Source: Chloroflexia bacterium (GTDB lineage Bacteria > Chloroflexota > Chloroflexia > DTKN01). Taken from it: a DNA stretch of 64,000 bases. The position numbers and the translations under genes were made by a program. The stretch's first letter is position 1. Each line of letters begins with the position of its first letter. The notes beneath the pieces were generated by a model. That model made no database searches. It was not told the origin of the DNA and was given only the letters and a program-made list of their open reading frames with translations. Shown one piece after another: positions 7,984-45,657 of this stretch. The stretch is taken from NCBI GenBank assembly GCA_034436115.1, contig DAOTVY010000045.1:15072-79071 (forward strand). The letters are read 5' to 3'.

Positions 7984-8026
7984 GGTCGCACGGGATCGAG
8001 GAAGAACCCCGAAAAAGGAGGACCCT

Positions 8027-8998: not shown

Positions 8999-9001
8999 AC
9001 C

Positions 9002-15410: not shown

Positions 15411-15439
15411 TTGACAACCTCCCCTTTTTCCCCTATAAT
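15411..15439 (+). promoter_or_regulatory. Consensus sigma-70 promoter TTGACA-N17-TATAAT driving tRNA-Glu
   Basis: Perfect -35 and -10 hexamers with 17-nt spacer. The -10 ends 12 nt before tRNA position 1. Confidence 0.55.
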
Positions 15440-15451
15440 GCATTGCCAGAC

Positions 15452-15525
15452 GGCCCCATCGTCTAGTGGCCTAGGACGCAGCCCTCTCAAGGCTGAGATC
15501 GGGGGTTCGAATCCCCCTGGGGCTA
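15452..15525 (+). tRNA. tRNA-Glu (anticodon CUC)
   Basis: Cloverleaf folded by hand. Acceptor GGCCCCA/UGGGGCU with discriminator A. D-arm GTCT...; anticodon stem CAGCC/GGCTG with loop CUCUCAA (U33, anticodon CUC, A37). T-arm GGGGG-TTCGAAT-CCCCC. No encoded CCA. Followed by a short GC stem and a T-rich run. Confidence 0.85.
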
Positions 15526-15605
15526 CTTTCGCCGGGTGGGAAGCTGCCCGGTTTGCTATTCTCGTTGCCTCCCTACACCAGGGGCCGGAACGCCCTGAAG
15601 GAAAG

Positions 15606-30629: not shown

Positions 30630-30660
30630 CGGGGTGTCCTCCTCGAAGCCCCAGCGGCCC

Positions 30661-31680: not shown

Positions 31681-31692
31681 GGGAGCCTCCTC

Positions 31693-32502: not shown

Positions 32503-32563
32503 TGGGACCTCCTTTCGGGGATCCCCTTCCCTCCCGCTTGCGGGGAGGGAAGGGGGAAAAGCC

Positions 32564-33787
32564 TTATAGTTGCTGAGCTCCCCAGCGGTAGGGGAGGTAA
32601 TCGTTGCCCAGGATCTCGCGGGCGATGATCAGCCGCATGATGTTCGTCGTGCCCTCCGCGCCGATGGAGTAGGAGCGCACGCCCCGGATGCCCATTTCGA
32701 TCGGGAACTCCTTGGAATAGCCGGCGGCCCCGAACCAATCCGCGACCTCGTTCATGGCCTGCCAGGCATAGATCGGCGCGCGCAGCTTGGCCATGGCGGC
32801 CGCCCGGGCGACGTCGAACGCCGTAGCCGATTTGTCCTGCCACATTTTGTCCATCAGCCAGGCGGCCTTGTAGGTGAGCAGCCGGGCCTCCTCGATGTTC
32901 GTGGCGTGCTCCGCCAGCGGGAACTGCACCCCTTCGAAGGCCGCGATCGGCCGGCCGAAGGCATAGCGCTGCTTGATGTAGTCGATGCCCATCTCCAGCA
33001 CCGCTTCGGCTGCGCCGACACAGGTGGCGCCGATGAGCACGCGCGCGGCGGAAAAGCCCTCCATCGCGTAGTAGAAGCCCCGACCCTCTTCGCCGATGCG
33101 GTTCTTGTCGGGCAGGAAAACGTCTTCCAGGGTAAAGCCCCCGGTCGAGATCCCAGCCCGACCCATGTCCTCGATGAGGGTGGTGGAGATTCCGGGGGTG
33201 TCCTTCAGCGGCACAGCAAAGAAGGTGAACCCACGGTGGCCGGCCTTCGGATCCGTGCGACAGAGCGTCATGTGGATGCCACCGAGCCGCTTCGACTCGG
33301 CGACGCCCGAGATGTACATCTTTTCCCCGTTGAGCACCCACCCGTCGCCCTTGCGCTCGGCCTTGGTCCGCGTAGCCCCCAGGATGTCCGAGCCGCCCGA
33401 GGGCTCGGTGGTGGCGATGCCCAGGAAAGCCTCCCCCCTGGTCACGCGCGGGAGGATCTCCTGCTTCAGTTCGGGGCTGGCGTAGTGGTCAAAGACGGAG
33501 CCCCAGGAAGCCATCACCAGGAAGAGGACCGGGATCGCCACGCTGATGTCCGCCCGGCCGAGTTCCTCGGCCGCGATGGCCGCCTCCATCCAGGAAGCGC
33601 CCATCCCGCCGTACTCCTCCGAGACGGTGCAGGCCAGCAGGCCCAGGTCCGCCATTCCCTTGATGACCTCATCTGGGATCTTGCCCTCTTCGTCCATCTT
33701 GCGCACGATCGGTTTGATCACGCTCTGGGCGAAATCCCGCACCGAGGCGCGCCACATCTCCTGTTCTTTGGTAAACGCGAAGTCCAT
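32564..33787 (-). CDS. Acyl-CoA dehydrogenase
   Basis: MDFAFTKEQEMWRASVRDFA... with overall ACAD similarity (GLL/GATEP-like motifs). AAGGAGAAGG RBS. The ORF-track ORF extends to 33838. Confidence 0.85.
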   Translation of the reverse strand: MDFAFTKEQEMWRASVRDFAQSVIKPIVRKMDEEGKIPDEVIKGMADLGLLACTVSEEYGGMGASWMEAAIAAEELGRADISVAIPVLFLVMASWGSVFDHYASPELKQEILPRVTRGEAFLGIATTEPSGGSDILGATRTKAERKGDGWVLNGEKMYISGVAESKRLGGIHMTLCRTDPKAGHRGFTFFAVPLKDTPGISTTLIEDMGRAGISTGGFTLEDVFLPDKNRIGEEGRGFYYAMEGFSAARVLIGATCVGAAEAVLEMGIDYIKQRYAFGRPIAAFEGVQFPLAEHATNIEEARLLTYKAAWLMDKMWQDKSATAFDVARAAAMAKLRAPIYAWQAMNEVADWFGAAGYSKEFPIEMGIRGVRSYSIGAEGTTNIMRLIIAREILGNDYLPYRWGAQQL

Positions 33788-33857
33788 GGCCTTCTCCTTT
33801 CTGGACTGCCAGCGTCCCCCCTCGGGGACTTCGAACACCTTCTTGCCAGGGCCCAGG

Positions 33858-35219
33858 TCACGTCGCGGAAACCGGCCCCACCGTGGCCTGGCCCAGTAGG
33901 GCCACGCCCGCCTCGAGGGCAGCCAGGTTTTCCCGGGCGACCTCGGCCTTTTGTCCCACTGTGATCGCTTCGCGCAGCGCCTCCAGCGGAAGCAGCCCGG
34001 TATCGCCTACCAGCGCCGCCAGCGCCATCATCGCCTGGTCCTTCTTCCCCACCGACGCCAGCGCAAGCGGCACCAGCTGTGCTTCGGTCTCCACCGGAAG
34101 GAGGTCGCTGCGGATGTAGAGGCGCGCCTGCGGCCCAAGGCGTTCGAGCGTCCGCCGCGCCACCTTCAGCCCCTCAGGCGCCAGCACGAGCATGAGATCG
34201 GGGGAGGGAATCCCCGTGTAATGGATCTCCTCGAGGCTGAGGATCACCTCGGAGACCGAATGGCCCGTTTGCACGGTCACCGGGTAGTCGTCCCGCTGGG
34301 TCGCCCAAAGTCCCGCGAGCACGGCCGCTCGACCCAGGATCGTTGCTGTCGAGCGGATCTTCTGGCCGGCCGCCCCGGCGATGACGATATGCGTCTTCTT
34401 GCGAACGCCGCTTTCGTACCGCGTCGGGAGAGGCTGAGGGGATAGCACGCGTTGGCCCGCCTGCGCGGCCACGAGCTCGCGATACGCGCGGCTATACTCA
34501 GCACGCTCCTCGCGGTGGACAATCCCTCGGCTCAAGCCACGTTCCGCCATCGCGGCCTCCAGGCCACGGCGCGTCAGCCGGTTGCTGGGGACAAAGTAAG
34601 CGGTGCACAGTTCCCAGATGTCAAAGAAAGCGAACCCTTCTCCCGCGATCGCCTCCGCGATCCAGTCGCTCAGCTCGGGGTCGAAGGCGGTCGCGCGAAC
34701 CACCAACCGGCCGCCGCTGGCGGCGACGATGCCGCATAGATCGAGCGGGTACTCGAGGTTGCCCAGGCGGGTAGTCGCCGTTGTGGCCCCATGCGGCGTG
34801 GTCACCGAGTGCTGGCCGCCGGTCATGCCAAAGTTAAAGTTGTTCAACAGGAGGACCGTGATCCCGATATTGCGGCGGGCCGCGTTGATCAAGTGATGGC
34901 CACCGATCCCTGCCCCGCCATCCCCCATGATGACCACCACTTTGAGGTCGGGGTTGGCCAGCTTGATCCCACTGGCGTAAGTGACGGAACGCCCGTGGAG
35001 CCCGTGGAAGGCATTGGTGATAAAGTACTGGTCGGACAACCCCGAACAGCCGATGTCGGAGACGATCACCACCTTGCGCGGATCGAGCTGGAGGCGCACT
35101 AGGGCTGCGTTCAGCCGGTCCAACACCAGGCCGTGGCTACAGCCCGGGCAAAACGGGTAGGGCAGGCGGGTGGGATCGAGGTAGGTCGGCCACCGGAGTT
35201 CGCTTTCCACAGCTTCCAT
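33858..35219 (-). CDS. 2-oxoacid:ferredoxin oxidoreductase TPP-binding beta subunit fused to a gamma-like C-terminal domain
   Basis: CPGCSHG...GDGG TPP-binding motifs, with a C-terminal domain resembling KOR/POR gamma. GGAGGAGG RBS before the ATG at 35219; a TTG at 35231 is an alternative start. Confidence 0.7.
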   Translation of the reverse strand: MEAVESELRWPTYLDPTRLPYPFCPGCSHGLVLDRLNAALVRLQLDPRKVVIVSDIGCSGLSDQYFITNAFHGLHGRSVTYASGIKLANPDLKVVVIMGDGGAGIGGHHLINAARRNIGITVLLLNNFNFGMTGGQHSVTTPHGATTATTRLGNLEYPLDLCGIVAASGGRLVVRATAFDPELSDWIAEAIAGEGFAFFDIWELCTAYFVPSNRLTRRGLEAAMAERGLSRGIVHREERAEYSRAYRELVAAQAGQRVLSPQPLPTRYESGVRKKTHIVIAGAAGQKIRSTATILGRAAVLAGLWATQRDDYPVTVQTGHSVSEVILSLEEIHYTGIPSPDLMLVLAPEGLKVARRTLERLGPQARLYIRSDLLPVETEAQLVPLALASVGKKDQAMMALAALVGDTGLLPLEALREAITVGQKAEVARENLAALEAGVALLGQATVGPVSAT

Positions 35220-35237
35220 CGCCTCCTCCAACGCCTC

Positions 35238-36356
35238 TCAGCGCAGGTGGGCCAGGATCTCCTGGGGCGTGATCAGCTCGCCATCCACCCGGTGCACCCC
35301 CACCACTTCGATCCCACGTGCGGCCGCCAACCGCTCGACCTCCAGGCGGTACTGGCCGAGGTTGAGCTCCGCTACGACGACTCGCTCGATCCCTTCGCAC
35401 GCCTCGAGGATGGCGCGCTCGGGTACCGGCCAAAGCGTCAGGACGGTAAGCGCCGAGACCTTTTGCCCATCCTTACGCGCCAGGGCGACCGCCTCGGCCA
35501 TCGCCCGAGCGGTGGTGCCGTAGCTCAGCAACAGTGTCCGTGCGCCCGGCTCCAGATCTGCCTTGACCATCGCGATCTCGTCGCGATAGGCATCGATCTT
35601 GGCGGCCAGGTGTCGGTTCAGCCGCTCTACCTTCGCGGGATCCTTGGTCAGATAGCCAAACTCGTCGTGGGTGGACGTGGTAAAGCGGACGATGTGTGGG
35701 CCCCCGATGGGAGAAAAGAGCGGCACATCCTCGAGGGCCGCGATCCGATAGGGGACAAACGCTGCATCGGGCGGAGCATACCGGCGCGAGGTCACCGGAA
35801 CTGGTTCGTAGGCCGCGACATCGACCGTCGCCCGGGTGAGCACCATTTCCTTATCGGTCGCCAAGAAGACCGGAGTGCGAAACCGCTCCGCAAGGTTAAA
35901 GGCGTGGATGGTGAGGCTGTAGCATTCGGGGATTGTGCTGGGGGCGAGGGCAATGATCGGGTAGCCTCCTGAGGTGCCCCAGCGGAGGAACTGCACGTCG
36001 CCCTGGGCCACTGTGGTGGCGCCCCCGGTGGCCGGCCCCATCCGCTGGCAATCGACGATCACCAGGGGGACCTCGCCCATGACCGCCAGACCGATGTTCT
36101 CGCTATAAAGGCTGATGCCTGGGCCAGAAGTCGCTGTCATCGCCTTGCGACCAGCCATCGCCGCCCCGATGCACAGCCCCAGGGAAGCGATCTCGTCCTC
36201 GGCCTGGATCGCGACCCCCCCAACCTTCGGGAGTTCCCGTAACATATGCACCAGGATACCGGAAGCAGGCGTGATCGGGTAGCCGGCGAAAAAGTCGCAA
36301 CCTGCCGCCAGCGCTCCCCGAGCAATCGCCTCGCTACCGTCGATAAACTCGCGCAT
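35238..36356 (-). CDS. 2-oxoacid:ferredoxin oxidoreductase alpha subunit
   Basis: MREFIDGSEAIARGALAAGCDFFAGYPITPAS is the typical KorA/PorA N-terminus. 373 aa. Confidence 0.75.
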   Translation of the reverse strand: MREFIDGSEAIARGALAAGCDFFAGYPITPASGILVHMLRELPKVGGVAIQAEDEIASLGLCIGAAMAGRKAMTATSGPGISLYSENIGLAVMGEVPLVIVDCQRMGPATGGATTVAQGDVQFLRWGTSGGYPIIALAPSTIPECYSLTIHAFNLAERFRTPVFLATDKEMVLTRATVDVAAYEPVPVTSRRYAPPDAAFVPYRIAALEDVPLFSPIGGPHIVRFTTSTHDEFGYLTKDPAKVERLNRHLAAKIDAYRDEIAMVKADLEPGARTLLLSYGTTARAMAEAVALARKDGQKVSALTVLTLWPVPERAILEACEGIERVVVAELNLGQYRLEVERLAAARGIEVVGVHRVDGELITPQEILAHLR

Positions 36357-36410
36357 GTTCCTCTCCGCTCCGGGATACACGCACCGGAACGCATTCGACG
36401 CAACCGTGGG

Positions 36411-37352
36411 CTAGCGACGCTGGAAGCGTGCTTCCCGCTTTTCCAGGAAAGCGGAGGTGCCCTCGTTCTTGTCCTCGGTGGCACAGATCAGGCCGAACTG
36501 CGCTGCTTCGAAGGCACAGGCTTTTTCGAGCGTGGTTTCCGCCCCGGTGCGTAGGCAACGCTTGGCCACCTCCACGGCGATGGGGCCGTTTCTGAGGATC
36601 TGTTCGGCCATCTCGCGTGCCGCGCTCAGCGCCGTGTTTGGGGCACCGGGGTTGCAGGTGTGGCAGTATCCCCATCGATCGAGCGGAGCGCCGCACTGCG
36701 CACAAACGGTCACCGGCTGTCCACAATTGGGACAGTGCGCACCGTGCTCGCAGGGCGTCCCCCGACAGGGGTTGCCCGGCATCTCCTGGCCGCACCGGTG
36801 GCACACGACCCGGTCGACAAGCCCGATGGACTTTGCCTCCAGGGCGGAGATTTGCTCCCCGGTGAGCACCAATCGCATGGCTTGGCCCATCCCCACGAGC
36901 CGGGGCAGGCGCTGTGACCCACCAAAGCCGGGGATCAGCCCGAGCTTGACCTCCGGCTGCCCCAGACGGGCGTTGTCCGAGGCGATGCGGATGTCGCCCG
37001 CCATAGCGAGCTCACACCCCCCACCCAGAGCGAAACCGTTCACCGCCATGAGCACCACGAGCCGCGAGTTCTCCATCTCGAAGAACAGCTGCTCCGCACG
37101 CCGGCACATCCATTCCCCCGTTTCGGGGGTGAGCAGCCTTAGCTCGTTGATGTCCGCACCGGCGACGAACGACTTGGGACCTGCTCCAGTCAGGATCAAT
37201 ACCCGAACCGACTCCTGGGCCTGGACCTCGTGGAAAGCCGAGATCAGCTCGCCGACCGTGGCGTGGTTGAGGGCATTGAGCACTTTGGGGCGATTGATCG
37301 TGATGACGGCCACCTCGCCGTCGACCTCGAGCGCGATGTTCTCGTAGACCAT
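36411..37352 (-). CDS. Enoyl-CoA hydratase/isomerase (crotonase) carrying a ~55-aa zinc-ribbon-like insertion with multiple CxxC pairs
   Basis: ITINRPKVLNALN...GGGCELAMAGD crotonase core. Insertion VCHRCGQEMPGNPCRGTPCEHGAHCPNCGQPVTVCAQCGAPLDRWGYCHTCNPGAP lies between the catalytic core and the C-terminal helices (approximately nt 36639-36803). Confidence 0.75.
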   Translation of the reverse strand: MVYENIALEVDGEVAVITINRPKVLNALNHATVGELISAFHEVQAQESVRVLILTGAGPKSFVAGADINELRLLTPETGEWMCRRAEQLFFEMENSRLVVLMAVNGFALGGGCELAMAGDIRIASDNARLGQPEVKLGLIPGFGGSQRLPRLVGMGQAMRLVLTGEQISALEAKSIGLVDRVVCHRCGQEMPGNPCRGTPCEHGAHCPNCGQPVTVCAQCGAPLDRWGYCHTCNPGAPNTALSAAREMAEQILRNGPIAVEVAKRCLRTGAETTLEKACAFEAAQFGLICATEDKNEGTSAFLEKREARFQRR

Positions 37353-37459
37353 CGCTTCCTCCTCCGTTGGCTGGGAGCACCTGCGCACCTGGCGGCCATT
37401 ATACCCGATTTCCGCCGTTTGGCAACTCTCTACGGCAGAACGTGAAGGATCACACAATA

Positions 37460-37488
37460 TTGACAGCGCCGCCCAAACGCGCTATAAT
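37460..37488 (+). promoter_or_regulatory. Consensus promoter TTGACA-N17-TATAAT for the gntR operon
   Basis: Perfect hexamers with a 17-nt spacer, read directly. Lies in the divergent intergenic region between the crotonase operon and gntR. Confidence 0.55.
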
Positions 37489-37494
37489 GTAAAT

Positions 37495-37520
37495 ATGATA
37501 TATCGTATACAGTATATCAT
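37495..37520 (+). promoter_or_regulatory. AT-rich palindromic operator candidate ATGATATA-tcGTATACag-TATATCAT at about +1 of the gntR promoter
   Basis: 8-bp perfect inverted-repeat arms flank a GTATAC core, matching the GntR/FadR-type GT-N-AC operator logic. A 26-bp AT-rich island in a 67% GC genome. Confidence 0.5.
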
Positions 37521-37547
37521 ATCTGAGCCCTCCGGAGGCGTCTCTCC

Positions 37548-38216
37548 ATGGCCGATGGGTTGCCCCGTCTCGAACAACCGCCCTCGCTGAAGGACCGTGC
37601 CTACGACACCATCAAGCAAGCCATCCTGACCTTGCAACTGAAACCGGGCCAGCCCCTGGTGGAACACGAGCTCGCCCGTCAGCTCGGAATCAGCAAGACC
37701 CCAGTGCGCGATGCCCTACAGGAACTGGAGCGCGAAGGGTTCGTCACCCGCGTCCTGTTCAAAGGGACCTATGTCACCGAAGTGACGATGAAGGACTTGC
37801 GGGAGATCTTTCAGCTGCGTGCCGTCCTGGAAGGGCTCGCCGCCCGGCTCGCTGCTCCCCGCTTTACCCCACAGGAGCTGGACGAACTGGAACATCACCT
37901 CGCCCTCTCCGAAGAGGCTCTGGCCGCGGGCGACCGCGCTCGCTGCTCCCGCTTGGGCCAGACCCTCCACAACGCGATCATCGAAAAGGCGGACAACACC
38001 CGCCTGACCTTGATCATCCGCAACCTGGATGACCACGTCCAGCGCTTCCGCGCCCTCTCGGACCAGATCAGCGGCCGACTGAACAAATCGGTGCGCGAGC
38101 ACCGCCGCATCCTGCAGGCGCTACGGCGTTGCGACCCGGATGCGGCTGAGCAGGCGGTCCGGGATCACCTGTTCAGCGTGTTGGACGACCTGAGCGCTTC
38201 TTCGGAGGAGGAGTAG
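37548..38216 (+). CDS. GntR-family transcriptional regulator, FadR subfamily (winged HTH plus FCD domain)
   Basis: LKPGQPLVEHELARQLGISKTPVRDALQELEREGFV is the GntR HTH; the C-terminal FCD domain is all-helical. Confidence 0.8.
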   Translation: MADGLPRLEQPPSLKDRAYDTIKQAILTLQLKPGQPLVEHELARQLGISKTPVRDALQELEREGFVTRVLFKGTYVTEVTMKDLREIFQLRAVLEGLAARLAAPRFTPQELDELEHHLALSEEALAAGDRARCSRLGQTLHNAIIEKADNTRLTLIIRNLDDHVQRFRALSDQISGRLNKSVREHRRILQALRRCDPDAAEQAVRDHLFSVLDDLSASSEEE

Positions 38217-38217
38217 C

Positions 38218-39945
38218 ATGCGACTGACGGGAGGGCAGGTGGTCGTCGAGATGCTGCGCGCCCACCAGGTGCGTTACCTTTTCGGCGTGCCCGGGGAGAC
38301 CAGCCTGGCCTTCTACGATGCCCTCTGTACGGGCCAGGATGCCCCGAAACATATCCTGGCTCGGGACGAACGCAGCGCCGCCTATATGGCCGATGTCTAC
38401 GCTCGTATCTCCTATCGTCCAGGGGTATGCGAAGCACCGAGCGGTGCTGGAGCAACCTACCTGGCCTCTGGCCTGGCCGAACCGCACGCCTCCTCGATCC
38501 CGGTGGTTGCCCTGACTTCCGATACCCCATTGGCGCAGGAAGAGCGCAACGTGCTGACCGCGTTGGATCAGCCAGGCCTCTTTGGGTCCATCAGCAAGTG
38601 GCGGGCGCTGGTCAAGGAGGCGAGCCGTATCCCGGATGCCATGCGCACGGCCTTTCGCCTGGCGACGAGCGGCCGGCCCGGCGCCACCGTGGTCATCCTG
38701 CCCTCGGATGTGCTGGCGGCCTCCTGCGAAGACCCGGGGCTGACCGGCGATACGCGCTGCGCCGTATATCCTGCCTACCCCGTGCGGCCCGATCCCGAGG
38801 CTGTGGAACAGGCTGCCCAGCAGCTCGTGCGTGCCGAGCGGCCGGTCATCGTGGCCGGAGGCGGCGCGGTGAGCGCGCGCGCCTGGGCGCAGCTCACCGC
38901 CCTGGCAGAAGCGCTCCAGGCACCTGTGGGGACTTCCATCTGCGGCAAAGGGGCCATCGCGGAGGATCACCCCCTCGCCCTGGGGGTCGTGGGCGGAAAC
39001 GGGGCTCGCCCCTACGCGAACAACTTGCTCCGGCAAGCCGACCTGATCCTTTTCGTCGGGTGCAAGACCGACTCGGTGACGACCCTGGGATGGACCCTTC
39101 CTGCACGGGGCTCTCCCCCCTCCCTGATCCACCTGGATGTCGATCCAGCCGAGATCGGGCGGAACTACCCGACCACGGTTGGCCTGGTGGGCGACGCCCG
39201 GTTGGGGCTGGCCGACCTCCTCGCGGCGTTACCGCGCCGCTTTCGCGGCCGGCGGGAGTGGCTGGCCGGCCTGGAGCAAGAACGGCAGCGCTTCTGGGCT
39301 GACTTTGCCGCCCGGGCAGCTTCCACGGAGCGGCCGATCCGGCCCCAGCGCGTCATCGAATGCCTGACCCGCCTGCTTCCCCGGGACGCCATCCTGGTTG
39401 CCGATGCCGGAACGCCCACCCCGTTCAGCGCGGCGTATTACCCCTCGCCGGCCGGCCGGCATGTCGTGATTCCCCGCGGCTATGGCGGCCTGGGCTACGC
39501 GATCCCCGGCGTGGTGGGAGCCAAACTCGCCCGCCCCGAAGCCACCGTGGTGGGGCTGATGGGGGACGGCAGCTTCGGCATGAGCGCCGGGGAGCTGGAG
39601 ACCGTAGCCCGCCTCGGGCTCCCCGTGCTCATCGTCCAGTTCAACAACGCCTGCTTCGGTTGGATCAAGATCTCGCAATGCCTGGAATACGGCGGGCGAG
39701 CCTTCGGGGTCGACTTTTCCGCCGAAACAGACTATGCGGCGATCGCTCGCGGATTCGGATTGGCCGGGTTCCGGGTGGAAGACCCGGAGGAACTAGAGAA
39801 GGCACTGCGCGAAGCCTTGACTTGCGGCCGGCCGGCGTTCGTGGACGTCGTGACCGCGTGCGAGACCGTCGAGGTGCCGCCGGTAGAAAAGTGGCAGCGT
39901 GCCTGGGCCGGGCAAGAACCGGCCGAGCGTCTGCAGGAGGGATGA
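38218..39945 (+). CDS. Thiamine-pyrophosphate-dependent enzyme (acetolactate-synthase-like fold; substrate unknown)
   Basis: 575 aa. N-terminal Pyr domain (YLFGVPGE) and C-terminal TPP-binding motif (GDGSFGM...N). Starts 2 nt after the gntR stop. Confidence 0.75.
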   Translation: MRLTGGQVVVEMLRAHQVRYLFGVPGETSLAFYDALCTGQDAPKHILARDERSAAYMADVYARISYRPGVCEAPSGAGATYLASGLAEPHASSIPVVALTSDTPLAQEERNVLTALDQPGLFGSISKWRALVKEASRIPDAMRTAFRLATSGRPGATVVILPSDVLAASCEDPGLTGDTRCAVYPAYPVRPDPEAVEQAAQQLVRAERPVIVAGGGAVSARAWAQLTALAEALQAPVGTSICGKGAIAEDHPLALGVVGGNGARPYANNLLRQADLILFVGCKTDSVTTLGWTLPARGSPPSLIHLDVDPAEIGRNYPTTVGLVGDARLGLADLLAALPRRFRGRREWLAGLEQERQRFWADFAARAASTERPIRPQRVIECLTRLLPRDAILVADAGTPTPFSAAYYPSPAGRHVVIPRGYGGLGYAIPGVVGAKLARPEATVVGLMGDGSFGMSAGELETVARLGLPVLIVQFNNACFGWIKISQCLEYGGRAFGVDFSAETDYAAIARGFGLAGFRVEDPEELEKALREALTCGRPAFVDVVTACETVEVPPVEKWQRAWAGQEPAERLQEG

Positions 39946-39946
39946 A

Positions 39947-41227
39947 ATGCCCAGGGTCGTTGTCGTTGGAGGCGGGTGGGCTGGCTGCGCTGCGGCATTG
40001 GCCGCCCGTAAAGCGGGCGCCGAGGTGATCCTGATCGAGCGTACCGATTGCCTGCTCGGCACAGGATTGGTCGGTGGGATCATGCGCAACAACGGCCGCT
40101 TCACGGCCGCGGAGGAGATGATCGCCATGGGCGGAGGCGATCTTTTCCTCCTGGCAGACCATGTGGCCCGACACACGAACGTCGAGTTCCCCGGCCATAA
40201 GCACGCCACGCTGTACGATGTTGCCCTCATGGAGCCTACTGTCCGTCGCTACCTGATCGAGCAGGGCGTGCAGCTATGGATGATGGCGCGCGCCACCAAC
40301 GTGGAAAAGGCCGATGGGCGGCTCCAAGCCGTGGTGCTGGAATCCGGCGAACGGGTAGAAGGCGACGTCTTTGTCGAGGCGACGGGGACCGCGGGGCCGC
40401 AGGGAAACTGCCGCCGCTACGGGAACGGCTGCGCCATGTGCATCCTGCGCTGTCCGAGCTGGGGAGGCCGCGTCAGCATCGCCGCCTGCGCGGGCGTCCA
40501 GGAGATGATGGGCCGCCGCGCCGATGGTTCGATCGGCTCGATGAGCGGCTCGTGCAAGCTGCACAAGGACTCTGTCCACCCCGATCTGGTGGCCGAACTG
40601 AACCGTACCGGGGTTGCTATCGTTCCCATCCCCAAGGAGCTGGTACACGCGGAAAAACTGTCCATCAAGGCTTGCCAACAGTATGCCTTGCCCGAGTTCG
40701 CCGAAAACCTGGTACTCCTGGACACCGGACACGTGAAACTGATGACCTCTTTTTACCCCCTGGAGGAGTTGCGCCGCATCCCCGGCATGGAAAACGCGCG
40801 CTACGAGGATCCTTATGCCGGAGGCAAGGGCAACTCGATCCGCTACCTTGCGCTTTCGCCCCGCGACGACACGTTGCGCGTACAGGGGCTGGAAAACCTC
40901 TTCTGCGCTGGGGAAAAGGCCGGCCTGCTGGTGGGGCATACGGAAGCGATTGGCACCGGCACGCTGGCCGGACACAACGCGGTGCGCTACGCTCTGGGCC
41001 TTCCCTTGCTCACCCTGCCCCGGAGCACCGCGGTCGGAGATGCCATCGCTTTCGTCCGCGAGGAGATGCAGACGCCCGAAGGGATGACACGCAAGTATAC
41101 CTTCTCCGGCGCGGTCTACTTCGAGCGCATGAAACAACTCGGGTTGTATACCACGGACGTCGCCGCAATCCGCCAGCGGGTCGAGGCCGCTGGCTGCGCC
41201 GGGATCTTCGCCCGCCGGTTGCCCTGA
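39947..41227 (+). CDS. FAD-dependent oxidoreductase with Cys-rich motif
   Basis: MPRVVVVGGGWAGCAAAL (GxGxxG dinucleotide-binding fold). Cys cluster CRRYGNGCAMCILRC. AGGAGGG RBS. Starts 2 nt after the TPP-enzyme stop. Confidence 0.6.
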   Translation: MPRVVVVGGGWAGCAAALAARKAGAEVILIERTDCLLGTGLVGGIMRNNGRFTAAEEMIAMGGGDLFLLADHVARHTNVEFPGHKHATLYDVALMEPTVRRYLIEQGVQLWMMARATNVEKADGRLQAVVLESGERVEGDVFVEATGTAGPQGNCRRYGNGCAMCILRCPSWGGRVSIAACAGVQEMMGRRADGSIGSMSGSCKLHKDSVHPDLVAELNRTGVAIVPIPKELVHAEKLSIKACQQYALPEFAENLVLLDTGHVKLMTSFYPLEELRRIPGMENARYEDPYAGGKGNSIRYLALSPRDDTLRVQGLENLFCAGEKAGLLVGHTEAIGTGTLAGHNAVRYALGLPLLTLPRSTAVGDAIAFVREEMQTPEGMTRKYTFSGAVYFERMKQLGLYTTDVAAIRQRVEAAGCAGIFARRLP

Positions 41228-41365: not shown

Positions 41366-42757
41366 ATGGGTGAAGCCGTACAGCTGACTGCTGCCCACTG
41401 GGTCTATGCGGCTTTCGTGATCCTGATCTTTGTCACGCTGGCCTTGCGGCGTGACACGGCGCTCGTCTGCGTCATCGGGGCCTTCATCCTCGGATGGATC
41501 ATCATGGGCAGTCCCATCGGAGGGCTCCAGGCCATCTTTAACGGCATGGTGCAGGCCGGCTCGGTGCTCCTCCCGGTGGTCTTTATCATCTCCATCGTCG
41601 TCGCCCTGGCCAAGGGATTGGAGCCGATGGGGACCCTCTACCTGATGGTGCGCCCCGCGGCCAAGCTGATGCGCACCCCGGCTCTGGCATTCTGGATCAC
41701 CGGGATCGTCATGTACGTCGCGGCCCTGTTCATCTGGCCTTCCCCCGCAACTGCCCTCGTGGGCGCGCTGCTCTTCCCTGCAGGCCTCGCGGTCGGCCTG
41801 CCTGCGATCTCGAGCGCGATGGCAATGAACCTCTTCGGCCACGGCGCTTGCCTCTCCACCGACCTGGTCATCCAAGGAGCCCCCCGTCTGACGGCGGAGG
41901 CATCCGGCCTTTCGGTGGCCGAGGTGATCCAGGCCAGCATCCCACTGAATATCGTTGCCAGCGTCGTCGCGCTGGCCCTGGCCTGGTTCCTGACCGTACG
42001 CAAGGATATCAAGGCCCATACCGTGACCGAGACCGAGTACCTGAAGTTCGAAAAGGAGCGCTCCAAGGCCGAGCAGCGCGTCTACTCCACGCCGGCCCGC
42101 GTAGCCGCCTGGGTGGTCCCTCTGGTCTTCTTGGTTGAGGTGATCATCCTGATCGTGCTCAAGATCCGCGGCGGAGATGCCACGGCCGTGCTGGGCGGTA
42201 CCTGCCTGGTGCTCCTCTCGATCTTTTCCCTGTGGGAGTACAAGCAGGAGGGGCTCGGGAAGATCACCGATAGCCTGCGCGAGGGCTTCATGTTCGGGAT
42301 GAAGGTCTTCTCCCCTGTGTTCATCGTTGCCGGCTTCTACCTGATGGGGGTCCCCGAGCACTGCACCGCGATCTTTGGCGATAAGGGCCGGCCGCTGATC
42401 ATCGAACTGATCAAGGCGCTCTCGAACGTGATCCCGATGAGCAAGGTGGTCGTCGCCCCGATGCACACCATCCTCTCGGGCATCACCGGACTGGACGGCT
42501 CCGGCTTTAACGATCTGCCGCTCATGGGAGCCCTGGCCGCCTCCTGGGGCCAGGCCCTGAAGATCAAGACTGCCTACCTGGCAGCCTTGGGCCAGATCTC
42601 GATGATCTGGGTGGGCGGCGGCGTGATCATCCCGTGGGCAGTCCTGCCGGTCTCGGCCATCACCGGAGTTCCGGCTATTGAACTCTGCCGCAAGAACTTC
42701 TGGCCATGCATCGCCGGCCTGGCCGCAGCGACCATCCTGGCCATCCTGCTGATGTAG
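41366..42757 (+). CDS. Polytopic membrane transporter (putative ion/organic anion permease; family uncertain)
   Basis: 463 aa, 10 or more predicted TM helices. GGAGAA RBS. Confidence 0.5.
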   Translation: MGEAVQLTAAHWVYAAFVILIFVTLALRRDTALVCVIGAFILGWIIMGSPIGGLQAIFNGMVQAGSVLLPVVFIISIVVALAKGLEPMGTLYLMVRPAAKLMRTPALAFWITGIVMYVAALFIWPSPATALVGALLFPAGLAVGLPAISSAMAMNLFGHGACLSTDLVIQGAPRLTAEASGLSVAEVIQASIPLNIVASVVALALAWFLTVRKDIKAHTVTETEYLKFEKERSKAEQRVYSTPARVAAWVVPLVFLVEVIILIVLKIRGGDATAVLGGTCLVLLSIFSLWEYKQEGLGKITDSLREGFMFGMKVFSPVFIVAGFYLMGVPEHCTAIFGDKGRPLIIELIKALSNVIPMSKVVVAPMHTILSGITGLDGSGFNDLPLMGALAASWGQALKIKTAYLAALGQISMIWVGGGVIIPWAVLPVSAITGVPAIELCRKNFWPCIAGLAAATILAILLM

Positions 42758-42825
42758 CGAGAAGAGGGTGGCCTGGCCCCTGGTTCAGGGGCCAGGCCAC
42801 CCTCAGATGGAGACGGGAGGGCACC

Positions 42826-43008
42826 ATGCCCCTGTTTGGGAAAAAGCGCAAAGAGCCCGAAAAGCCCCCCTCCGAAGAAGAGGCCTATGTGATCTGCCCT
42901 CACTGCTACCTCGACTTTACCGTGCGCCAGGTGCAGGAGGCCGGAGGCCAGTGCCCCTCCTGCAAGGGCAAGATCGACCTGGAGCGCGCGCCCAGGGCCA
43001 GGCTGTGA
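42826..43008 (+). CDS. Small zinc-ribbon protein (60 aa)
   Basis: CPHC...CPSC pairs. GGAGGG RBS. Its stop overlaps the GTG start of the downstream MFS gene (GTGA). Confidence 0.4.
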   Translation: MPLFGKKRKEPEKPPSEEEAYVICPHCYLDFTVRQVQEAGGQCPSCKGKIDLERAPRARL

Positions 43009-44429
43009 GGCGCATTCGGTTGCCCATACCGCACCCGAATCCCCCTGCGCCGGCATCGGGGCCGGTCCGCTCCGTTCACTGGGCCCCGCTGGCCGCAGTG
43101 CTGCTAGGAACGTTCCTGGGAACCGTTGCCAACAGCTCTTCGAACGTAGCCTTGCCGTCCGTGGCGGCACAGCTGGGAGAACCGCTCGAGCGGAGCGTTT
43201 GGGTGGTCTCCCTGTACCCGCTCACCTTTGCTGTCCTCCTCCCACTGGGCGGTTATCTGGTGGATCGGGTCGGCATCCGTTGCACGTACCTCCTGAGCGT
43301 GGGGCTGCTCACGCTGGGAGCTCTGGGCTGTTCCCTGGCCCCCTCGCTTCCCTGGCTACTCGCCTTCCGCATCCTTCAGGGAATCGGCGCCGCCCCGATC
43401 GTGCCTGTGGTCATGGCCGTGGCCGGGCGGTACATCCCGCGGGACTACCGCGGCCGCGCGACCGGCTACTGGGCGCTGGCCAACAGCGTGGGACACGCGG
43501 CCGGGCCACCCCTGAGCGGCGTCCTTACCCAATATGCGGGCTGGCGCGCCGTTTTCTTCCTGGGCGTCCCGTTGGGGATAGTGAGCATCTTCCTGGCGTG
43601 GCGCAAGCTTCCTCACGATGCTCCCGGACATCCCCGGCCTTTCGACCCGGCTGGATCCCTGGCCCTGATGGTCCTGGCGCTGGCGGGCCTGCTCGCCCTG
43701 CAGACGGGCGTGCGCGCCGGCGGCACGTCACCCGATACGCTCACCTACCTCGCCCTGGCAGCCACGGCTGCGGTCGTACTGGCGCTCGCCGAGCGGCGGG
43801 CCGCCTCGCCCGTCTTGGGCCGACATCTCCTTTCGAACATCCCCTTCGTGGCCTCGATGGCGGTGCTGGCCGCCCAATTCTTCTGCCTCTTCGGGCTTCA
43901 ATTGACGCTCCCTGTCTACCTCATCCAGGGAAGGGGCTGGGCAGCAAGCACCGCTGGCGCCTTGATCCTGCTCCTGCCACTGGCTACCGCGGTGGTTTCC
44001 CCGGCCGCCGGCCGCCTGGCCGACCGCTGGGGCGTCCGGCCGGTGTGTACTTGCGGCGTACTGCTTGCCAGCGCGTCCGTCTGCCTGTTCTTGTTCTGGC
44101 AAGGGTCTACCGCTTGGTGGACGTTCGGACTGGGGCTGATCGCTTTGGGTGCCGGTATGGGCCTGGCCCAGTCGCCCGCGGCCTCTAGTGTGGCCCTACT
44201 TGTCCCTCCCGAGGAACTGGGAGTCGCTACCGCCATCTTTCACATGGCGCGTTTCTTGAGCGGGAGCATCGGCAGCACTCTCTTCGGCCTCTGGATGGCC
44301 CGGGCCCCGACCCCTTCCACCGGCCTCCACCGCAGCGCCCTGGCCGCCCTCATCGTCTTCGGCGCCGCTTTCCTGGCTGCCCTCCAGACGCCCCGTCGGC
44401 CCCGAGGAAGCATAGACCCGCCGGTGTGA
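43005..44429 (+). CDS. MFS transporter
   Basis: 12-TM topology. LGGYLVDRVGIR and GRLADRWGVRP MFS loop motifs. The GTG start is inferred. Confidence 0.7.
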   Translation: MRRIRLPIPHPNPPAPASGPVRSVHWAPLAAVLLGTFLGTVANSSSNVALPSVAAQLGEPLERSVWVVSLYPLTFAVLLPLGGYLVDRVGIRCTYLLSVGLLTLGALGCSLAPSLPWLLAFRILQGIGAAPIVPVVMAVAGRYIPRDYRGRATGYWALANSVGHAAGPPLSGVLTQYAGWRAVFFLGVPLGIVSIFLAWRKLPHDAPGHPRPFDPAGSLALMVLALAGLLALQTGVRAGGTSPDTLTYLALAATAAVVLALAERRAASPVLGRHLLSNIPFVASMAVLAAQFFCLFGLQLTLPVYLIQGRGWAASTAGALILLLPLATAVVSPAAGRLADRWGVRPVCTCGVLLASASVCLFLFWQGSTAWWTFGLGLIALGAGMGLAQSPAASSVALLVPPEELGVATAIFHMARFLSGSIGSTLFGLWMARAPTPSTGLHRSALAALIVFGAAFLAALQTPRRPRGSIDPPV

Positions 44430-44526
44430 TATAATGGTTTTGTCTTCCGCCGGCGTGCGCCCTCAGCACTTGCGGACGCGTCACAACATCATCTTCCGGT
44501 CCGGTACCACACCAGGAGGTAAACGG

Positions 44527-45657
44527 ATGACTTCCCCAGGACGAAAGGACCAGGCAACCGCTCCGCCACCGCCCGCGCTGCCTCCCGACCCGGCCCACTG
44601 GTCGCTCGGTGACGAAGCGCAACGGGAAGCTCTCCTGCCCCTGCTGCTCCAGGAACTTGCTTCTTCCGTTCCCTCGCGTCGCGCCCGAGCAGCGGAACTC
44701 CTCGCCGAGGCCGGAGCGGATGAGGCCGTCCCGGCGCTGTACGAACTGCTGCGACGCGAGCGCGACCTGAGCGTCCGCTGCCAGGCACTCCGGGCGTTGC
44801 ACCATCTGGCTGGAACAGCGGAGGCGATCGAGGGCCCCTCTGCCGAGGAACTCGCTGCCTGGAAAGACGAGCTGCTTGCGGGCCTGGTGGAGCAACTGCA
44901 GAGCATCGCTCCGGCCCAGCGTTGGAGCGCGGCCGAAGGGCTTGGCCGCCTGGGCGACCCGCGCGCGGTCCCTGCCCTCGTGGGAGCCCTGCGTGATCCC
45001 CACGCCTTCGTGCGTTGGACGGCTATCCAGGCCCTGGGGGAAATTGGCGCCCCCGAGACGGTGGCCCTCCTCCTGCCGTTGCTGGAGGAACCAGACCCGC
45101 TCATCCGTCGAAGCGCGGTCGATGCGTTGGGCCGCTTCGATACGCCGGAATCCCGGGAGGCATTGCGCCGTGCTCTGCGCGACCCCGATCCCACAGTACG
45201 CCGCAACGCGATCGACGCCGTCGCCCGCCTCCAGGATACCGCGGCGGTCGATGCCCTCGTCCTGGCCCTCGACCCGCGAAACGGACTGTGGCTTCGCTAC
45301 AGCGCGGCGGAGGCCCTGGGCGTTGTGGGCAATCACCGGGCCGTCGCTCCGCTGATCGAGGCCGCCCAGGACCCCCAGGTGCTCATCCGCCGCGTCGCCG
45401 TGCGCTCTCTGGGCCTCCTGCACGACAGCCGGGCCATCCCAACCCTTGTCCGCGCACTCCGGGATCCCGATCCTCAGGTGCGCCTGCACGCGGCGGAGGG
45501 GTTGGGCCACATTGGGCACGAGGGGGTCGTCCCGCAGCTCAAGCAGCGGACAAACGACCGGAGCACTGTGTTCGGCCGGCGGGTCGGTGACGCCGCGCGC
45601 GAGGCCATCCTGTCCATCCGCGCACGCACCGCTTCCCAGAGCGAACCTGGGACCTGA
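44527..45657 (+). CDS. HEAT/PBS-lyase-type repeat protein
   Basis: About 10 tandem 31-aa repeats of the pattern R..A..ALG.IG...AVPALI..L.D.D..VR. AGGAGG RBS. Confidence 0.65.
   Translation: MTSPGRKDQATAPPPPALPPDPAHWSLGDEAQREALLPLLLQELASSVPSRRARAAELLAEAGADEAVPALYELLRRERDLSVRCQALRALHHLAGTAEAIEGPSAEELAAWKDELLAGLVEQLQSIAPAQRWSAAEGLGRLGDPRAVPALVGALRDPHAFVRWTAIQALGEIGAPETVALLLPLLEEPDPLIRRSAVDALGRFDTPESREALRRALRDPDPTVRRNAIDAVARLQDTAAVDALVLALDPRNGLWLRYSAAEALGVVGNHRAVAPLIEAAQDPQVLIRRVAVRSLGLLHDSRAIPTLVRALRDPDPQVRLHAAEGLGHIGHEGVVPQLKQRTNDRSTVFGRRVGDAAREAILSIRARTASQSEPGT

Follow-up and report, generated by a model that had tools for sequence, protein, structure and literature searches.

The DNA between positions 37460 and 41227 of the 64-kb window (the whole stretch that was analysed) is a real operon of an anaerobic, CODH/ACS-containing Chloroflexota bacterium, and we infer that a repressor controls it. 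A promoter and a palindrome are followed by genes for a GntR/FCD regulator, a 575-aa ThDP-dependent enzyme and a 426-aa GIDA-fold FAD protein, the last being an uncharacterised flavoprotein with a predicted iron-sulfur cluster (Table 1). The best explanation, to which we assign a probability of roughly 55%, is a substrate-inducible, autorepressed module for the catabolism of an amino, hydroxy or oxo acid taken up by the cell.

Table 1. Features of the operon and its surroundings in window coordinates.
Feature	Position	Strand	Evidence or remark
Divergent 2-oxoacid / acyl-CoA operon	28596-37352	-	
Membrane Fe-S (CCG/HdrD-like) oxidoreductase	28596-30629	-	
EtfA	30661-31680	-	
EtfB	31693-32502	-	
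Acyl-CoA dehydrogenase (ACAD)	32564-33838	-	
2-Oxoacid:ferredoxin oxidoreductase (OFOR) beta+gamma	33858-35231	-	
2-Oxoacid:ferredoxin oxidoreductase (OFOR) alpha	35238-36380	-	
Enoyl-CoA hydratase	36411-37352	-	
Divergent promoter-like site, TTGCCA-16-TATAAT	37398-37425	-	11/12; for the minus-strand operon
Perfect sigma-70-type promoter, TTGACA-17-TATAAT	37460-37488	+	12/12 consensus positions
Operator-like 30-nt palindrome, ATATGATATATCGTA/TACAGTATATCATAT	37493-37522	.	AT-rich, over predicted start site
GntR-family regulator, FCD (FadR-type) effector domain, 222 aa	37548-38216	+	Pfam GntR 1.1e-17, FCD 9.5e-30
ThDP-dependent enzyme, acetolactate-synthase / pyruvate-oxidase superfamily, 575 aa	38218-39945	+	TPP_enzyme N, M and C domains
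GIDA-fold FAD protein, predicted Fe-S site, 426 aa	39947-41227	+	Pfam GIDA E = 2e-36
G+C-rich hairpin over FAD stop codon	41209-41241	+	14 pairs, -37.7 kcal/mol, weak T tail
Membrane protein, predicted elevator-type carboxylate carrier fold, 463 aa	41366-42757	+	AF2 model pLDDT 83
19-bp perfect hairpin just past carrier gene	42764-42804	+	-52.8 kcal/mol, z = -7.4
MFS (DHA2-like) transporter	42768-44429	+	Coordinates of longest ORF
Conserved 60-aa zinc-ribbon-like ORF (CPHC...CPSC)	42826-43008	+	

Promoter, operator-like palindrome and regulator

The promoter is perfect, as had been described from the sequence, with a -35 box at 37460-37465 and a -10 box at 37483-37488. When at most one mismatch is allowed, its pattern occurs three times in the window compared to none in 100 shuffles, and two of the three copies have no mismatch. 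Besides the operon promoter, this applies to the copy at 15411-15439, which lies 13 nt upstream of a tRNA-Glu gene (15452-15526) and thus serves as a positive control that the organism uses such promoters. The -35 boxes of the operon promoter and of the divergent promoter-like site are separated by 34 nt.

The palindrome begins 5 nt past the -10 box and has two 15-nt arms, 87% complementary and with no gap between them; alternatively, it can be parsed as the three hexamers GATATA/GTATAC/GTATAT. Around it the GC content drops to 0.44, compared to 0.65 for the window, and ATGATAT is confined within the window to the two arms. AT-rich initial transcribed regions are common, and the palindrome could be mere promoter-proximal DNA of this kind, with the operon being constitutive or controlled elsewhere; on its own, the number of 7-mers in the window lacks significance (at least two matches in 40 of 100 shuffles), and the closest relative, L005 (FAD protein 95% identical), carries GGTATAC repeats in place of the ATGATAT arms, so that the exact definition of the operator is only provisional. 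We nevertheless find this explanation unlikely, as both 7-mers are laid out as a 30-nt dyad that is kept in relatives: in eight related Chloroflexota loci an exact TTGACA, a spacer of 16-17 nt and a TAnAnT box are directly followed by GTATA/GATAT dyads or repeats, despite diverged flanking intergenic sequence. Furthermore, the 9-mer GTATATCAT is present in a single copy, at this position only, in five loci (the window, L001, L009, L031 and L085; 17-64 kb each), and related motifs are found in L005, L011, L017 and L086. Finally, the first gene past the palindrome encodes a GntR/FCD regulator, and one member of this repressor class, NanR of Escherichia coli, binds (GGTATA)3 (PMC8012715). The promoter and the operator-like element are thus conserved in relatives, and the recurrence of the motif at the same place agrees, at the sequence level, with the autoregulated GntR layout of the preliminary description, in which the GntR/FCD protein would repress its own operon.

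The regulator reaches no NCBIfam cut-off, its best score being that for PhnR (129 bits vs 271), with NanR at 78 vs 260, LldR at 65 vs 311 and PdhR at 62 vs 330, and the best solved structures related to it are those of uncharacterised GntR/FCD proteins. It shares with the FadR-subfamily repressors NanR, PdhR, LldR and GlcC, which sense small carboxylates, a winged-helix GntR domain joined to an FCD domain, a gene heading the operon that it probably controls, and a predicted operator overlapping the start site of the promoter; it differs in falling below every equivalog cut-off. The GTATA-type repeats resemble the NanR operator (PMC8012715), although the candidate operator here is a dyad rather than three direct repeats and its binding is a prediction only. 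The palindrome lies approximately 68 nt from the -35 box of the divergent promoter, and no second operator-like site was found in the window; control of the divergent OFOR operon by the regulator is therefore not supported.

The junction of gntR with the ThDP gene reads TAG-c-ATG (38214-38220) and that of the ThDP gene with the FAD gene TGA-a-ATG (39943-39949). The tight coupling reported earlier thus stands, with both spacers being 1 nt and not 2 nt. A GGAGG-type ribosome-binding site lies ahead of each start, and the operon genes of the relatives L001, L085 and L086 are likewise separated by small gaps or overlap. The FAD gene was taken to start at the ATG at 39947 because its homologues are 426 aa long and begin with MPRVVV.

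ThDP enzyme and predicted iron-sulfur flavoprotein

With its three TPP_enzyme domains, the ThDP enzyme has the acetolactate-synthase-like fold assigned to it beforehand. It resembles the clade of acetolactate synthase, pyruvate oxidase and glyoxylate carboligase in its N/Pyr, middle and C/PP domains and its length, matches AHAS, Gcl and POX structures with E-values of 1e-72 to 1e-59 (best PDB matches BbmA and AHAS, ~1e-72), and in its translation the ThDP motif GDG...NN can be read, along with a Glu apparently equivalent to the catalytic Glu of AHAS. The enzyme could accordingly be taken for an ordinary biosynthetic IlvB-type acetolactate synthase in a cluster for branched-chain amino-acid synthesis: its best NCBIfam matches are acetolactate-synthase models (PRK06112, 419.6 bits; TIGR00118, 411.8 bits), AHAS structures are among its top PDB matches (~1e-71), and its homologues bear the JGI label 'acetolactate synthase large subunit'. 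We give this reading next to no credence, as the enzyme reaches no NCBIfam cut-off, the IlvB model included (673 for PRK06112, 538.35 for TIGR00118), and neither ilvN nor ilvC turned up in the window ORFs that were scanned with Pfam. Moreover, the ThDP gene has no accompanying gene for a small regulatory subunit; it lies among genes for transporters and catabolic enzymes, and in many genomes it is translationally coupled to the genes for the GntR/FCD regulator and the Fe-S flavoprotein. That the enzyme is not IlvB is thereby supported, and the earlier view that the enzyme pair belongs to no standard named pathway is upheld. Orthologues with 65-88% identity are common in Chloroflexota. AruI (5-guanidino-2-oxopentanoate decarboxylase), which decarboxylates a 2-oxoacid derived from an amino acid, offers an analogy only (296 bits vs a cut-off of 500).

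The FAD protein combines an N-terminal GxGxxG FAD fold with a C-terminal GIDA FAD motif region (residues ~260-390), an arrangement also found in its best fold matches GidA/MnmG and TrmFO, and its length is similar to that of TrmFO. The Cys motif given previously as C-x4-C-x2-C-x3-C was found to be C155-x6-C162-x2-C165-x3-C169-P, and this motif suggests an Fe-S cluster. Seven Cys are invariant, comprising this CxxCxxxCP-containing motif and three further residues. The family is compact, with 164 matches at E <= 1e-30 among 1.84 billion representatives, and highly conserved, with 59-95% identity across at least five phyla and 125 of the 426 residues at least 97% conserved; the predicted structural model is poor (pLDDT 59.5). 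Such cross-phylum conservation is typical of translation-related proteins and, together with the Pfam GIDA match and with GidA/MnmG and TrmFO as the best solved relatives by both sequence and fold, could point to an RNA-modifying enzyme like TrmFO or MnmG whose position in the operon is incidental. This is highly unlikely, since the protein scores 10-fold below the equivalog cut-offs (TrmFO, 42 bits vs 428.65; MnmG, 39 vs 524.85) and aligns with these enzymes only in the C-terminal FAD-motif region, outside of which the invariant Cys are found. The context of the gene is also catabolic rather than translational, as it lies within catabolic clusters under GntR or PucR regulators, adjoins the gene of a carboxylate-type carrier in 36 of 80 genomes, and is present in two copies in some genomes (L013; Heliobacterium chlorum, L060 and L063).

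Carrier and conserved neighbourhood

The transporter reported 138 nt downstream of the FAD gene is indeed found at that distance and is a membrane protein. It gave no Pfam, NCBIfam or PDB sequence match, and some homologues show a weak Pfam match to DctM (PF06808). The predicted all-helical fold resembles elevator carriers of the ion-transporter superfamily, with Foldseek matches to MleN (NhaC/MleN), INDY/DASS, TRAP-DctM and AbgT (TM-scores up to 0.66, E-values 6e-6 to 1e-3). As the partner genes DctQ and DctP were not observed, the protein would be a stand-alone secondary carrier, unlike TRAP DctM. As the hairpin over the FAD stop codon is terminator-like, the transcript could end before the carrier gene, making co-transcription only possible; the hairpin may be a partial terminator or a processing/stability element. 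Further downstream comes the zinc-ribbon-like ORF, with which the equivalently placed ORFs of L001 and L086 share 63-68% identity; an MFS gene also occupies the same position in other Chloroflexota loci. The MFS_1 match begins at residue 111 of the longest ORF, and translation probably starts at about 43.0-43.1 kb.

Conservation of the neighbourhood was assessed in 80 species-level genome loci encoding the FAD protein. The carrier gene is present in 42 of these and adjoins the FAD gene in 36, from several phyla, compared to seven with a ThDP gene, directly adjacent in only three. The core is thus the Fe-S flavoprotein and the carrier, often with a GntR/FCD regulator, and the ThDP-FAD enzyme pair proposed in the preliminary description is not a conserved unit. 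Some close Anaerolineae relatives have a gntR-FAD-carrier arrangement with the ThDP gene missing. The ThDP enzyme is a lineage-restricted accessory, common in Chloroflexota and found once in a Desulfobacterota-like MAG; its linkage to the FAD gene takes three architectures in two phyla (L001, L005, L011, L015, L017, L020, L031, L034, L085 and L086). Among the top 120 ThDP and FAD homologue clusters, approximately 20 were judged by eye to share the length of their longest contig, which is a proxy for co-location only.

The recurrent neighbours are related to 2-oxoacids. Chloroflexota loci other than the window likewise have PFOR or OFOR genes beside the module, and three architectures of this phylum show this arrangement. 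A divergent PFOR was seen in seven loci and OFOR-alpha in five, the window included. In four loci an enzyme of the molybdenum aldehyde-oxidase / xanthine-dehydrogenase family, in which no FAD-binding domain was detected, is encoded between the ThDP and FAD genes, and these versions of the cluster also have a DHDPS-family gene. In Lachnospiraceae, genes for an aminotransferase, a D-2-hydroxyacid dehydrogenase and a racemase-like protein precede the FAD gene. Bacillota loci encode RidA, a PLP enzyme and a B12 aminomutase-like protein, and in some a gene read from its sequence as PyrK-like, with no Pfam match, adjoins the FAD gene.

Proposed function

The proposal of a catabolic module builds on gene order and coupling, domain identities, the FAD-carrier pairing and the recurrent neighbours, and from these we infer the substrate class, the reaction order and the direction of the redox step. 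Because functions are known for no member of the FAD family, the carrier family or this ThDP subfamily, the substrate and reactions are guesses. The GntR/FCD protein would bind the GTATA/GATAT-type palindrome at approximately +1 to +28 of its own promoter and repress gntR, the ThDP gene and the FAD gene; with read-through of the hairpin, repression would perhaps extend to the carrier, the zinc-ribbon ORF and the MFS gene. A small carboxylate at the FCD domain would release the regulator. The carrier would bring in an organic acid, with amino acids and 2-hydroxy acids being the likeliest candidates. The flavoprotein would oxidise this acid to a 2-oxoacid, or run the reverse reduction, and would exchange electrons, in one direction or the other, with a ferredoxin-level carrier through its predicted Cys4 cluster. 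Next, the 2-oxoacid would undergo decarboxylation or carboligation by the ThDP enzyme. Alternatively, OFOR of the divergent operon would turn it into an acyl-CoA, to be processed by ACAD/ETF and enoyl-CoA hydratase. The 2-oxoacid link of the preliminary description thus remains plausible; the absence of the ThDP gene from most FAD-carrier loci means that the two enzymes need not act on consecutive intermediates.

It is conceivable, if doubtful, that the flavoprotein is instead a ferredoxin-dependent reductase of the imported carboxylate, using reduced ferredoxin made by OFOR/PFOR and an enoate, oxo acid or dicarboxylate as electron sink, with the ThDP enzyme acting in parallel on pyruvate or another 2-oxoacid. 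The PFOR/OFOR genes beside the module, the anaerobic, CODH/ACS-containing host, the PyrK-like gene and the transport of di- and tricarboxylates by fold relatives of the carrier are in line with this, whereas many FAD-carrier loci have no ferredoxin-reducing enzyme nearby. None of the evidence distinguishes the redox direction, and the reductase is a variant of the catabolic module rather than a separate mechanism. In the catabolic module, the iron-sulfur flavoprotein is the conserved hub, and it is paired with the carrier in clusters for the breakdown of amino acids and 2-oxoacids that span at least five phyla.

Gene layout and window neighbours

The preliminary description had outlined a tightly coupled operon of a FadR-type GntR regulator, a ThDP enzyme and an FAD oxidoreductase, followed by a transporter gene, here called the carrier gene. 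The operon genes are separated by spacers of 1 nt (junctions TAG-c-ATG for gntR/ThDP and TGA-a-ATG for ThDP/FAD) instead of the 2-nt gaps first given, with a GGAGG-type ribosome-binding site before each start, and the 138-nt gap between the FAD gene and the carrier gene was confirmed. Two very stable, G+C-rich hairpins, neither with a clear T tract, flank the carrier gene; they could serve as terminators, as elements for processing or stability, or simply be repeat elements. Rfam detected neither riboswitches nor other RNA families at the locus.

Features of the locus and of related loci (window positions unless a locus is named)
Feature	Position	Strand	Description
CODH/ACS genes (Wood-Ljungdahl)	3100-10351	+	Prismane/CODH catalytic subunit, ACS beta, two CdhD-type corrinoid Fe-S subunits
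Second perfect promoter copy	15411-15439		TTGACA-17-TATAAT, 13 nt 5' of tRNA-Glu
tRNA-Glu(CTC) with perfect promoter	15411-15526	+	useful internal reference for how promoters are used in this Chloroflexota genome
Membrane protein, 677 aa	28596-30629	-	nitrate-reductase-gamma-like, 4Fe-4S dicluster and CCG (HdrD-like) domains; after the ACAD-EtfBA genes
Divergent operon	28596-37352	-	enoyl-CoA hydratase, OFOR alpha, OFOR beta+gamma, acyl-CoA dehydrogenase, EtfB, EtfA, CCG/HdrD-like membrane Fe-S protein
Operon promoter	37460-37488		TTGACA-17-TATAAT, perfect consensus
Dyad (candidate operator)	37493-37522		30 nt, 15 + 15 nt arms, 87% complementary
gntR	37548-38216		GntR and FCD domains
ThDP enzyme gene	38218-39945		575 aa
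FAD protein gene	39947-41227		426 aa, GIDA-fold
Hairpin over the FAD stop codon	41209-41241	+	G+C-rich, 14 pairs, -37.7 kcal/mol
Carrier gene	41366-42757		463-aa membrane protein
Hairpin directly 3' of the carrier gene	42764-42804	+	19 perfect pairs, -52.8 kcal/mol, z = -7.4
Zinc-ribbon ORF	42826-43008	+	60 aa, two CxxC pairs (CPHC...CPSC), between carrier and MFS genes
HEAT/PBS-lyase-repeat protein gene	44434-45657	+	407 aa, directly 3' of the MFS gene
FAD protein paralogues, L013	3692-4969, 10225-11418		two copies in one genome
Mo protein, L011	6139-8949		930 aa, fused [2Fe-2S] and molybdopterin domains, xanthine-dehydrogenase/aldehyde-oxidase family, between ThDP and FAD genes
Bacillota cluster, L054	1874-10453		example of the B12/PLP gene cluster

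Downstream of the carrier gene, the zinc-ribbon ORF has counterparts with 63–68% identity in the same position in two related loci (L001 and L086). The longest MFS ORF (553 aa, from 42768) overlaps this conserved small ORF in another frame with its 5' part and was therefore rejected as real over its full length; the MFS start probably lies further downstream. The 407-aa protein encoded next carries repeats similar to those in NblB and CpcE, and its counterpart in L005, the closest relative, is 78% identical.

A second, oppositely oriented promoter (11/12 consensus positions) leads into the divergent operon, which encodes a 2-oxoacid:ferredoxin oxidoreductase (OFOR) together with acyl-CoA-processing and electron-transfer proteins. 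The 677-aa membrane protein at its end is presumably akin to the ETF-oxidising Fe-S oxidoreductases found in the membranes of syntrophs. The CODH/ACS genes elsewhere in the window indicate that the organism is an anaerobe with the carbonyl branch.

Domain identities of the regulator, enzymes and carrier

The regulator comprises a GntR winged helix-turn-helix domain (PF00392, 63.9 bits against a cut-off of 27, residues 15–76) and an all-helical FCD effector domain (PF07729, 104 bits against 24.3, residues 86–208), in line with the FadR-type assignment made earlier, and solved FCD regulators align with it over its full length. It is a plain FCD-type GntR protein without an equivalog assignment.

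The acetolactate-synthase-like fold ascribed to the ThDP enzyme is upheld by the presence, in order, of the TPP_enzyme_N, TPP_enzyme_M and TPP_enzyme_C domains (106.9, 133.4 and 131.6 bits, all above cut-offs) and by its best solved relatives, BbmA and AHAS (both ~1e-72). Sub-family assignment by HMM, proposed at the outset, was carried out against NCBIfam, and no model passed its cut-off. The best matches were PRK06112 (419.6 bits against 673) and TIGR00118 IlvB (411.8 against 538.35); the glyoxylate carboligase, pyruvate oxidase, AlsS and AruI models scored lower still, the AruI-type model reaching 296 against a cut-off of 500, and the remaining ALS equivalogs also stayed below threshold. 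Xsc, OXC/HACL, BFD and IolD were absent from the top NCBIfam matches. No ilvN/ilvH or ilvC gene turned up in the window ORFs that were scanned, and the neighbours of the ThDP gene are gntR and the FAD gene. That the enzyme is a biosynthetic one of the IlvB type, with the orthology and ilvN/ilvC company this would entail, is thus hardly credible given both the sub-cut-off scores and the genomic context. The enzyme is a member of the large POX/ALS-like superfamily that reaches the cut-off of no curated sub-family.

The carrier gave no sequence match in Pfam, NCBIfam or the PDB, and some of its homologues have only weak precomputed matches to DctM (PF06808). Its AF2 model (pLDDT 83.4) retrieved by Foldseek, as top matches, exclusively elevator-type carriers of the ion-transporter superfamily, including a model of the MleN malate/lactate antiporter, the INDY/NaDC/VcINDY di-/tricarboxylate symporters, the TRAP proteins SiaQM/IseQM, and AbgT. 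The predicted fold is thus the elevator type common to DctM, DASS, NhaC and AbgT, and these matches support the uptake of an organic anion by the carrier, without indicating which one.

The FAD protein contains a GIDA-type FAD domain (PF01134, 126.1 bits against 22.1, 2e-36). Its cysteine motif, originally given with a C-x4 spacing, reads C-x6-C-x2-C-x3-C-P. In an alignment of 77 sequences, seven cysteines, candidate ligands of an Fe-S cluster, are 99–100% invariant (C155, C162, C165 and C169, forming the CxxCxxxCP-like motif, as well as C203, C243 and C320), and conservation reaches at least 97% at 125 of the 426 positions. A model built from a 15-sequence alignment reached a pLDDT of only 59.5, with the cysteine-motif region below 50; the best PDB fold matches of this low-confidence model were GidA/MnmG and TrmFO (Foldseek, TM ~0.45–0.5), which would place the protein in the GidA/TrmFO superfamily and no further. 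A role in RNA modification, like that of TrmFO or MnmG, would agree with the FAD domain and with these structural matches. Its equivalog scores are, however, about 10-fold under the cut-offs (TrmFO 42.3 against 428.65, MnmG 39.2 against 524.85), the alignment to both is confined to the C-terminal FAD-motif region (residues ~290–390), and the cysteine cluster and genomic context also speak against such a role, as do duplicate gene copies, making it very unlikely. Two FAD protein paralogues per genome were observed in L013, within a single locus, and in Heliobacterium chlorum, at two loci (L060, L063); such duplication speaks against one housekeeping function only.

More than 7,600 clusters at 90% identity match the FAD protein at E <= 1e-10, and the top 120 are 72–100% identical to it. 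Among species-representative genomes the identity is 59–95%, the closest being L005 (95%), a 'Chloroflexia bacterium' MAG. The taxa cover Chloroflexota, Bacillota (including Sporomusa, Clostridium, Heliobacterium and Lachnospiraceae), Desulfobacterota-like MAGs, one Ignavibacteriales MAG and one Treponema MAG, with about 60–70% identity among those phyla. A search of 1.84 billion representatives at 50% identity gave 164 matches at E <= 1e-30, many of them fragmentary, and look-up of cluster members for the distant representatives returned no informative names. The family is thus compact and clearly apart from TrmFO and MnmG, and the protein ranks among the most conserved unannotated enzymes of anaerobes. 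The curated family libraries, the PDB and the literature searched yielded no characterized member, and nothing relevant turned up in that literature on GidA-like proteins with 4Fe-4S or on BbmA with CsmA. Curated models and solved structures are lacking for the FAD protein family and the carrier family alike.

Gene neighbourhoods in other genomes

The window proteins were mapped onto 80 genome loci, the best 80 of roughly 590 genome hits for the FAD family. The carrier was present in 42 of these 80 loci, 36 of which have it within 600 nt of the FAD gene, and the ThDP enzyme in seven, adjacent in three. The ThDP and FAD proteins are thus ruled out as an obligate pair, and the pairing that the preliminary description had put forward as the unit gives way to the FAD–carrier linkage (36 adjacent against 3 in the best 80 loci). 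Together with the gene orders described below, these counts identify the FAD protein and the carrier, often with a GntR/FCD regulator, as the conserved unit. The ThDP enzyme is an accessory confined to certain lineages; in Chloroflexota it is common and tightly coupled: the ThDP and FAD genes overlap by 8 nt in L001 and are 4 nt apart in L086. Compared by eye, the longest contigs had the same length in about 20 of the top-120 ThDP and FAD clusters, which is a proxy for co-location.

De novo clustering of neighbouring ORFs, combined with contig look-ups, resolved five architectures. The first (a), gntR-ThDP-FAD-carrier-(60-aa ORF)-MFS, is that of the window, L001, L005 and L086. The second (b) lacks the ThDP gene and consists of a divergent pyruvate:ferredoxin oxidoreductase (PFOR) and gntR-FAD-carrier, usually followed by an MFS and a P-type ATPase gene (L002-4, L008-10, L012, L016, L023). 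In the third (c), the order is gntR-ThDP-[Mo protein]-FAD-SBP_bac_5 ABC system-Usp-DHDPS family-MFS-DUF6917-OFOR alpha (L011, L015, L017, L031); L085 has this order minus the Mo protein. The fourth (d), from Bacillota, is DUF6917-RidA-PLP enzyme (SelA/DgaE-like)-FAD-[carrier]-GntR-[small ORF]-610-aa B12 protein-KamB-type reactivase. The fifth (e), from Lachnospiraceae, combines a PucR regulator, an Asp/Glu-racemase-like protein, a D-2-hydroxyacid dehydrogenase and a class I/II aminotransferase with the FAD protein and the carrier. One Desulfobacterota-like MAG (L034) encodes ThDP-FAD-carrier, with a ThDP enzyme 44% identical to that of the window. In all five architectures, the FAD protein is found among enzymes making or consuming amino acids, 2-hydroxy acids or 2-oxoacids.

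The Mo protein of architecture (c) also lies between the ThDP and FAD genes in L015, L017 and L031; Pfam detects no FAD-binding domain in it. The putative Fe-S flavoprotein with the GIDA fold may supply the flavin module that the Mo protein lacks; alternatively, the Mo protein may oxidise an aldehyde made by the ThDP enzyme.

The Bacillota cluster was found in L013, L019, L022, L027, L028, L038, L042, L046-L049, L054-L057, L063, L069, L074 and L075. Its PLP enzyme (488 aa) is of fold-type I and weakly SelA/DgaE-like, its reactivase matches the KamB-type model NF052386 (236 bits against a cut-off of 210), and its 610-aa protein has an N-terminal B12-binding domain similar to that of the lysine 5,6-aminomutase beta subunit, with the C-terminal 480 aa unassigned. 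The cluster, conserved around the FAD protein and apparently uncharacterised, looks like a novel B12/PLP aminomutase pathway; the literature searched contained nothing relevant on DUF6917, on KamB with a reactivase, or on an aminomutase with RidA, an FAD-dependent oxidoreductase and GntR.

Promoter, candidate operator and proposed pathway

The consensus promoter and AT-rich palindrome reported for the operon were both corroborated. Allowing at most one mismatch, the promoter pattern has three matches in the 64-kb window and none in 100 shuffles. Besides the operon promoter, one further match is perfect and lies upstream of tRNA-Glu, and the organism therefore does employ such promoters for strong transcription. 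The dyad starts 5 nt past the -10 box, the local G+C falls to 0.44 (65% in the window), and ATGATAT is found in the 64-kb window solely in the two dyad arms.

All eight Chloroflexota loci starting with gntR have an exact TTGACA, a 16–17-nt spacer and TAnAnT, directly followed by GTATA/GATAT-type dyads or repeats. The site reads ATGATATATCGTATACAGTATATCAT in the window, AGTATAC-N5-ATGATATgcgGTATATCAT in L001, GTGTATATCATATATCATATACAC in L031, TGTATACGATATATGATATACA in L085 and GGTATACCGTATACGATGTACAGTATACC in L005. The window (64 kb), L001, L009, L031 and L085 each contain the 9-mer GTATATCAT (or its complement) as a single copy, which invariably lies past the -10 box and ahead of the gntR start. 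Far from being absent in relatives, the candidate operator is thus conserved in position and core sequence, with its exact architecture drifting, and this conservation makes it unlikely that the palindrome is non-functional. A precedent for GTATA-type sites among FCD-type GntR regulators is the E. coli repressor NanR, which binds a (GGTATA)3 operator (PMC8012715). No second copy of the operator was found in the 64 kb, including upstream of the carrier gene and of the divergent operon, and nothing therefore points to a site of their own for either.

Taken together, we favour, at a probability of roughly 0.55, an autorepressed module in which a substrate is imported and processed by Fe-S flavoprotein redox chemistry and a ThDP step; any particular substrate would merit much lower confidence. 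The regulator, sitting on the dyad at about +1 to +28 relative to a start site predicted near 37495, would keep its own operon repressed until released by a carboxylate effector, and the carrier would import the substrate. The Fe-S flavoprotein could then convert between a 2-oxoacid and an amino or hydroxy acid, or reduce an unsaturated or oxo acid, its electrons travelling via the predicted Cys4 cluster, and the ThDP enzyme would decarboxylate or ligate the 2-oxoacid. In architecture (c), oxidation of the resulting aldehyde might subsequently fall to the neighbouring Mo enzyme, and the divergent OFOR-ACAD-ETF-ECH operon may provide a CoA-dependent route. A directional variant, in which the flavoprotein acts as a ferredoxin-dependent reductase or electron sink, is a lesser possibility that the data fit equally well.

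The regulatory design of this module is ordinary, and its textbook layout offers a convenient handle: one palindrome and one regulator could give a route to the inducer and thence to the substrate. The unusual part is the ultra-conserved GIDA-fold hub with its Fe-S-type motif and orphan carrier partner, a pair embedded in at least five distinct catabolic cluster designs, and the reason for interest has accordingly moved from the ThDP and FAD pair to this flavoprotein–carrier core. With somewhat less than even confidence, we propose that the GIDA-fold protein founds a new class of metabolic Fe-S flavoenzymes and forms, with the orphan carrier, the invariant core of a widespread, unrecognised anaerobic amino/oxo-acid pathway with lineage-specific completions. 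If so, the GIDA fold, otherwise known from tRNA/rRNA modification, would have been redeployed for small-molecule redox chemistry. In Chloroflexota, the pathway would be completed by the ThDP enzyme, alone or alongside a molybdenum aldehyde oxidoreductase. RidA, DUF6917, a PLP enzyme and a KamB-type reactivase would join a novel fused B12 aminomutase-like protein for this purpose in Bacillota, and Lachnospiraceae would draw on an aminotransferase plus a D-2-hydroxyacid dehydrogenase. Once assigned, the reaction of the FAD protein would annotate thousands of genomes together and could expose a missing step in the anaerobic turnover of amino acids and organic acids in digesters, sediments and guts.
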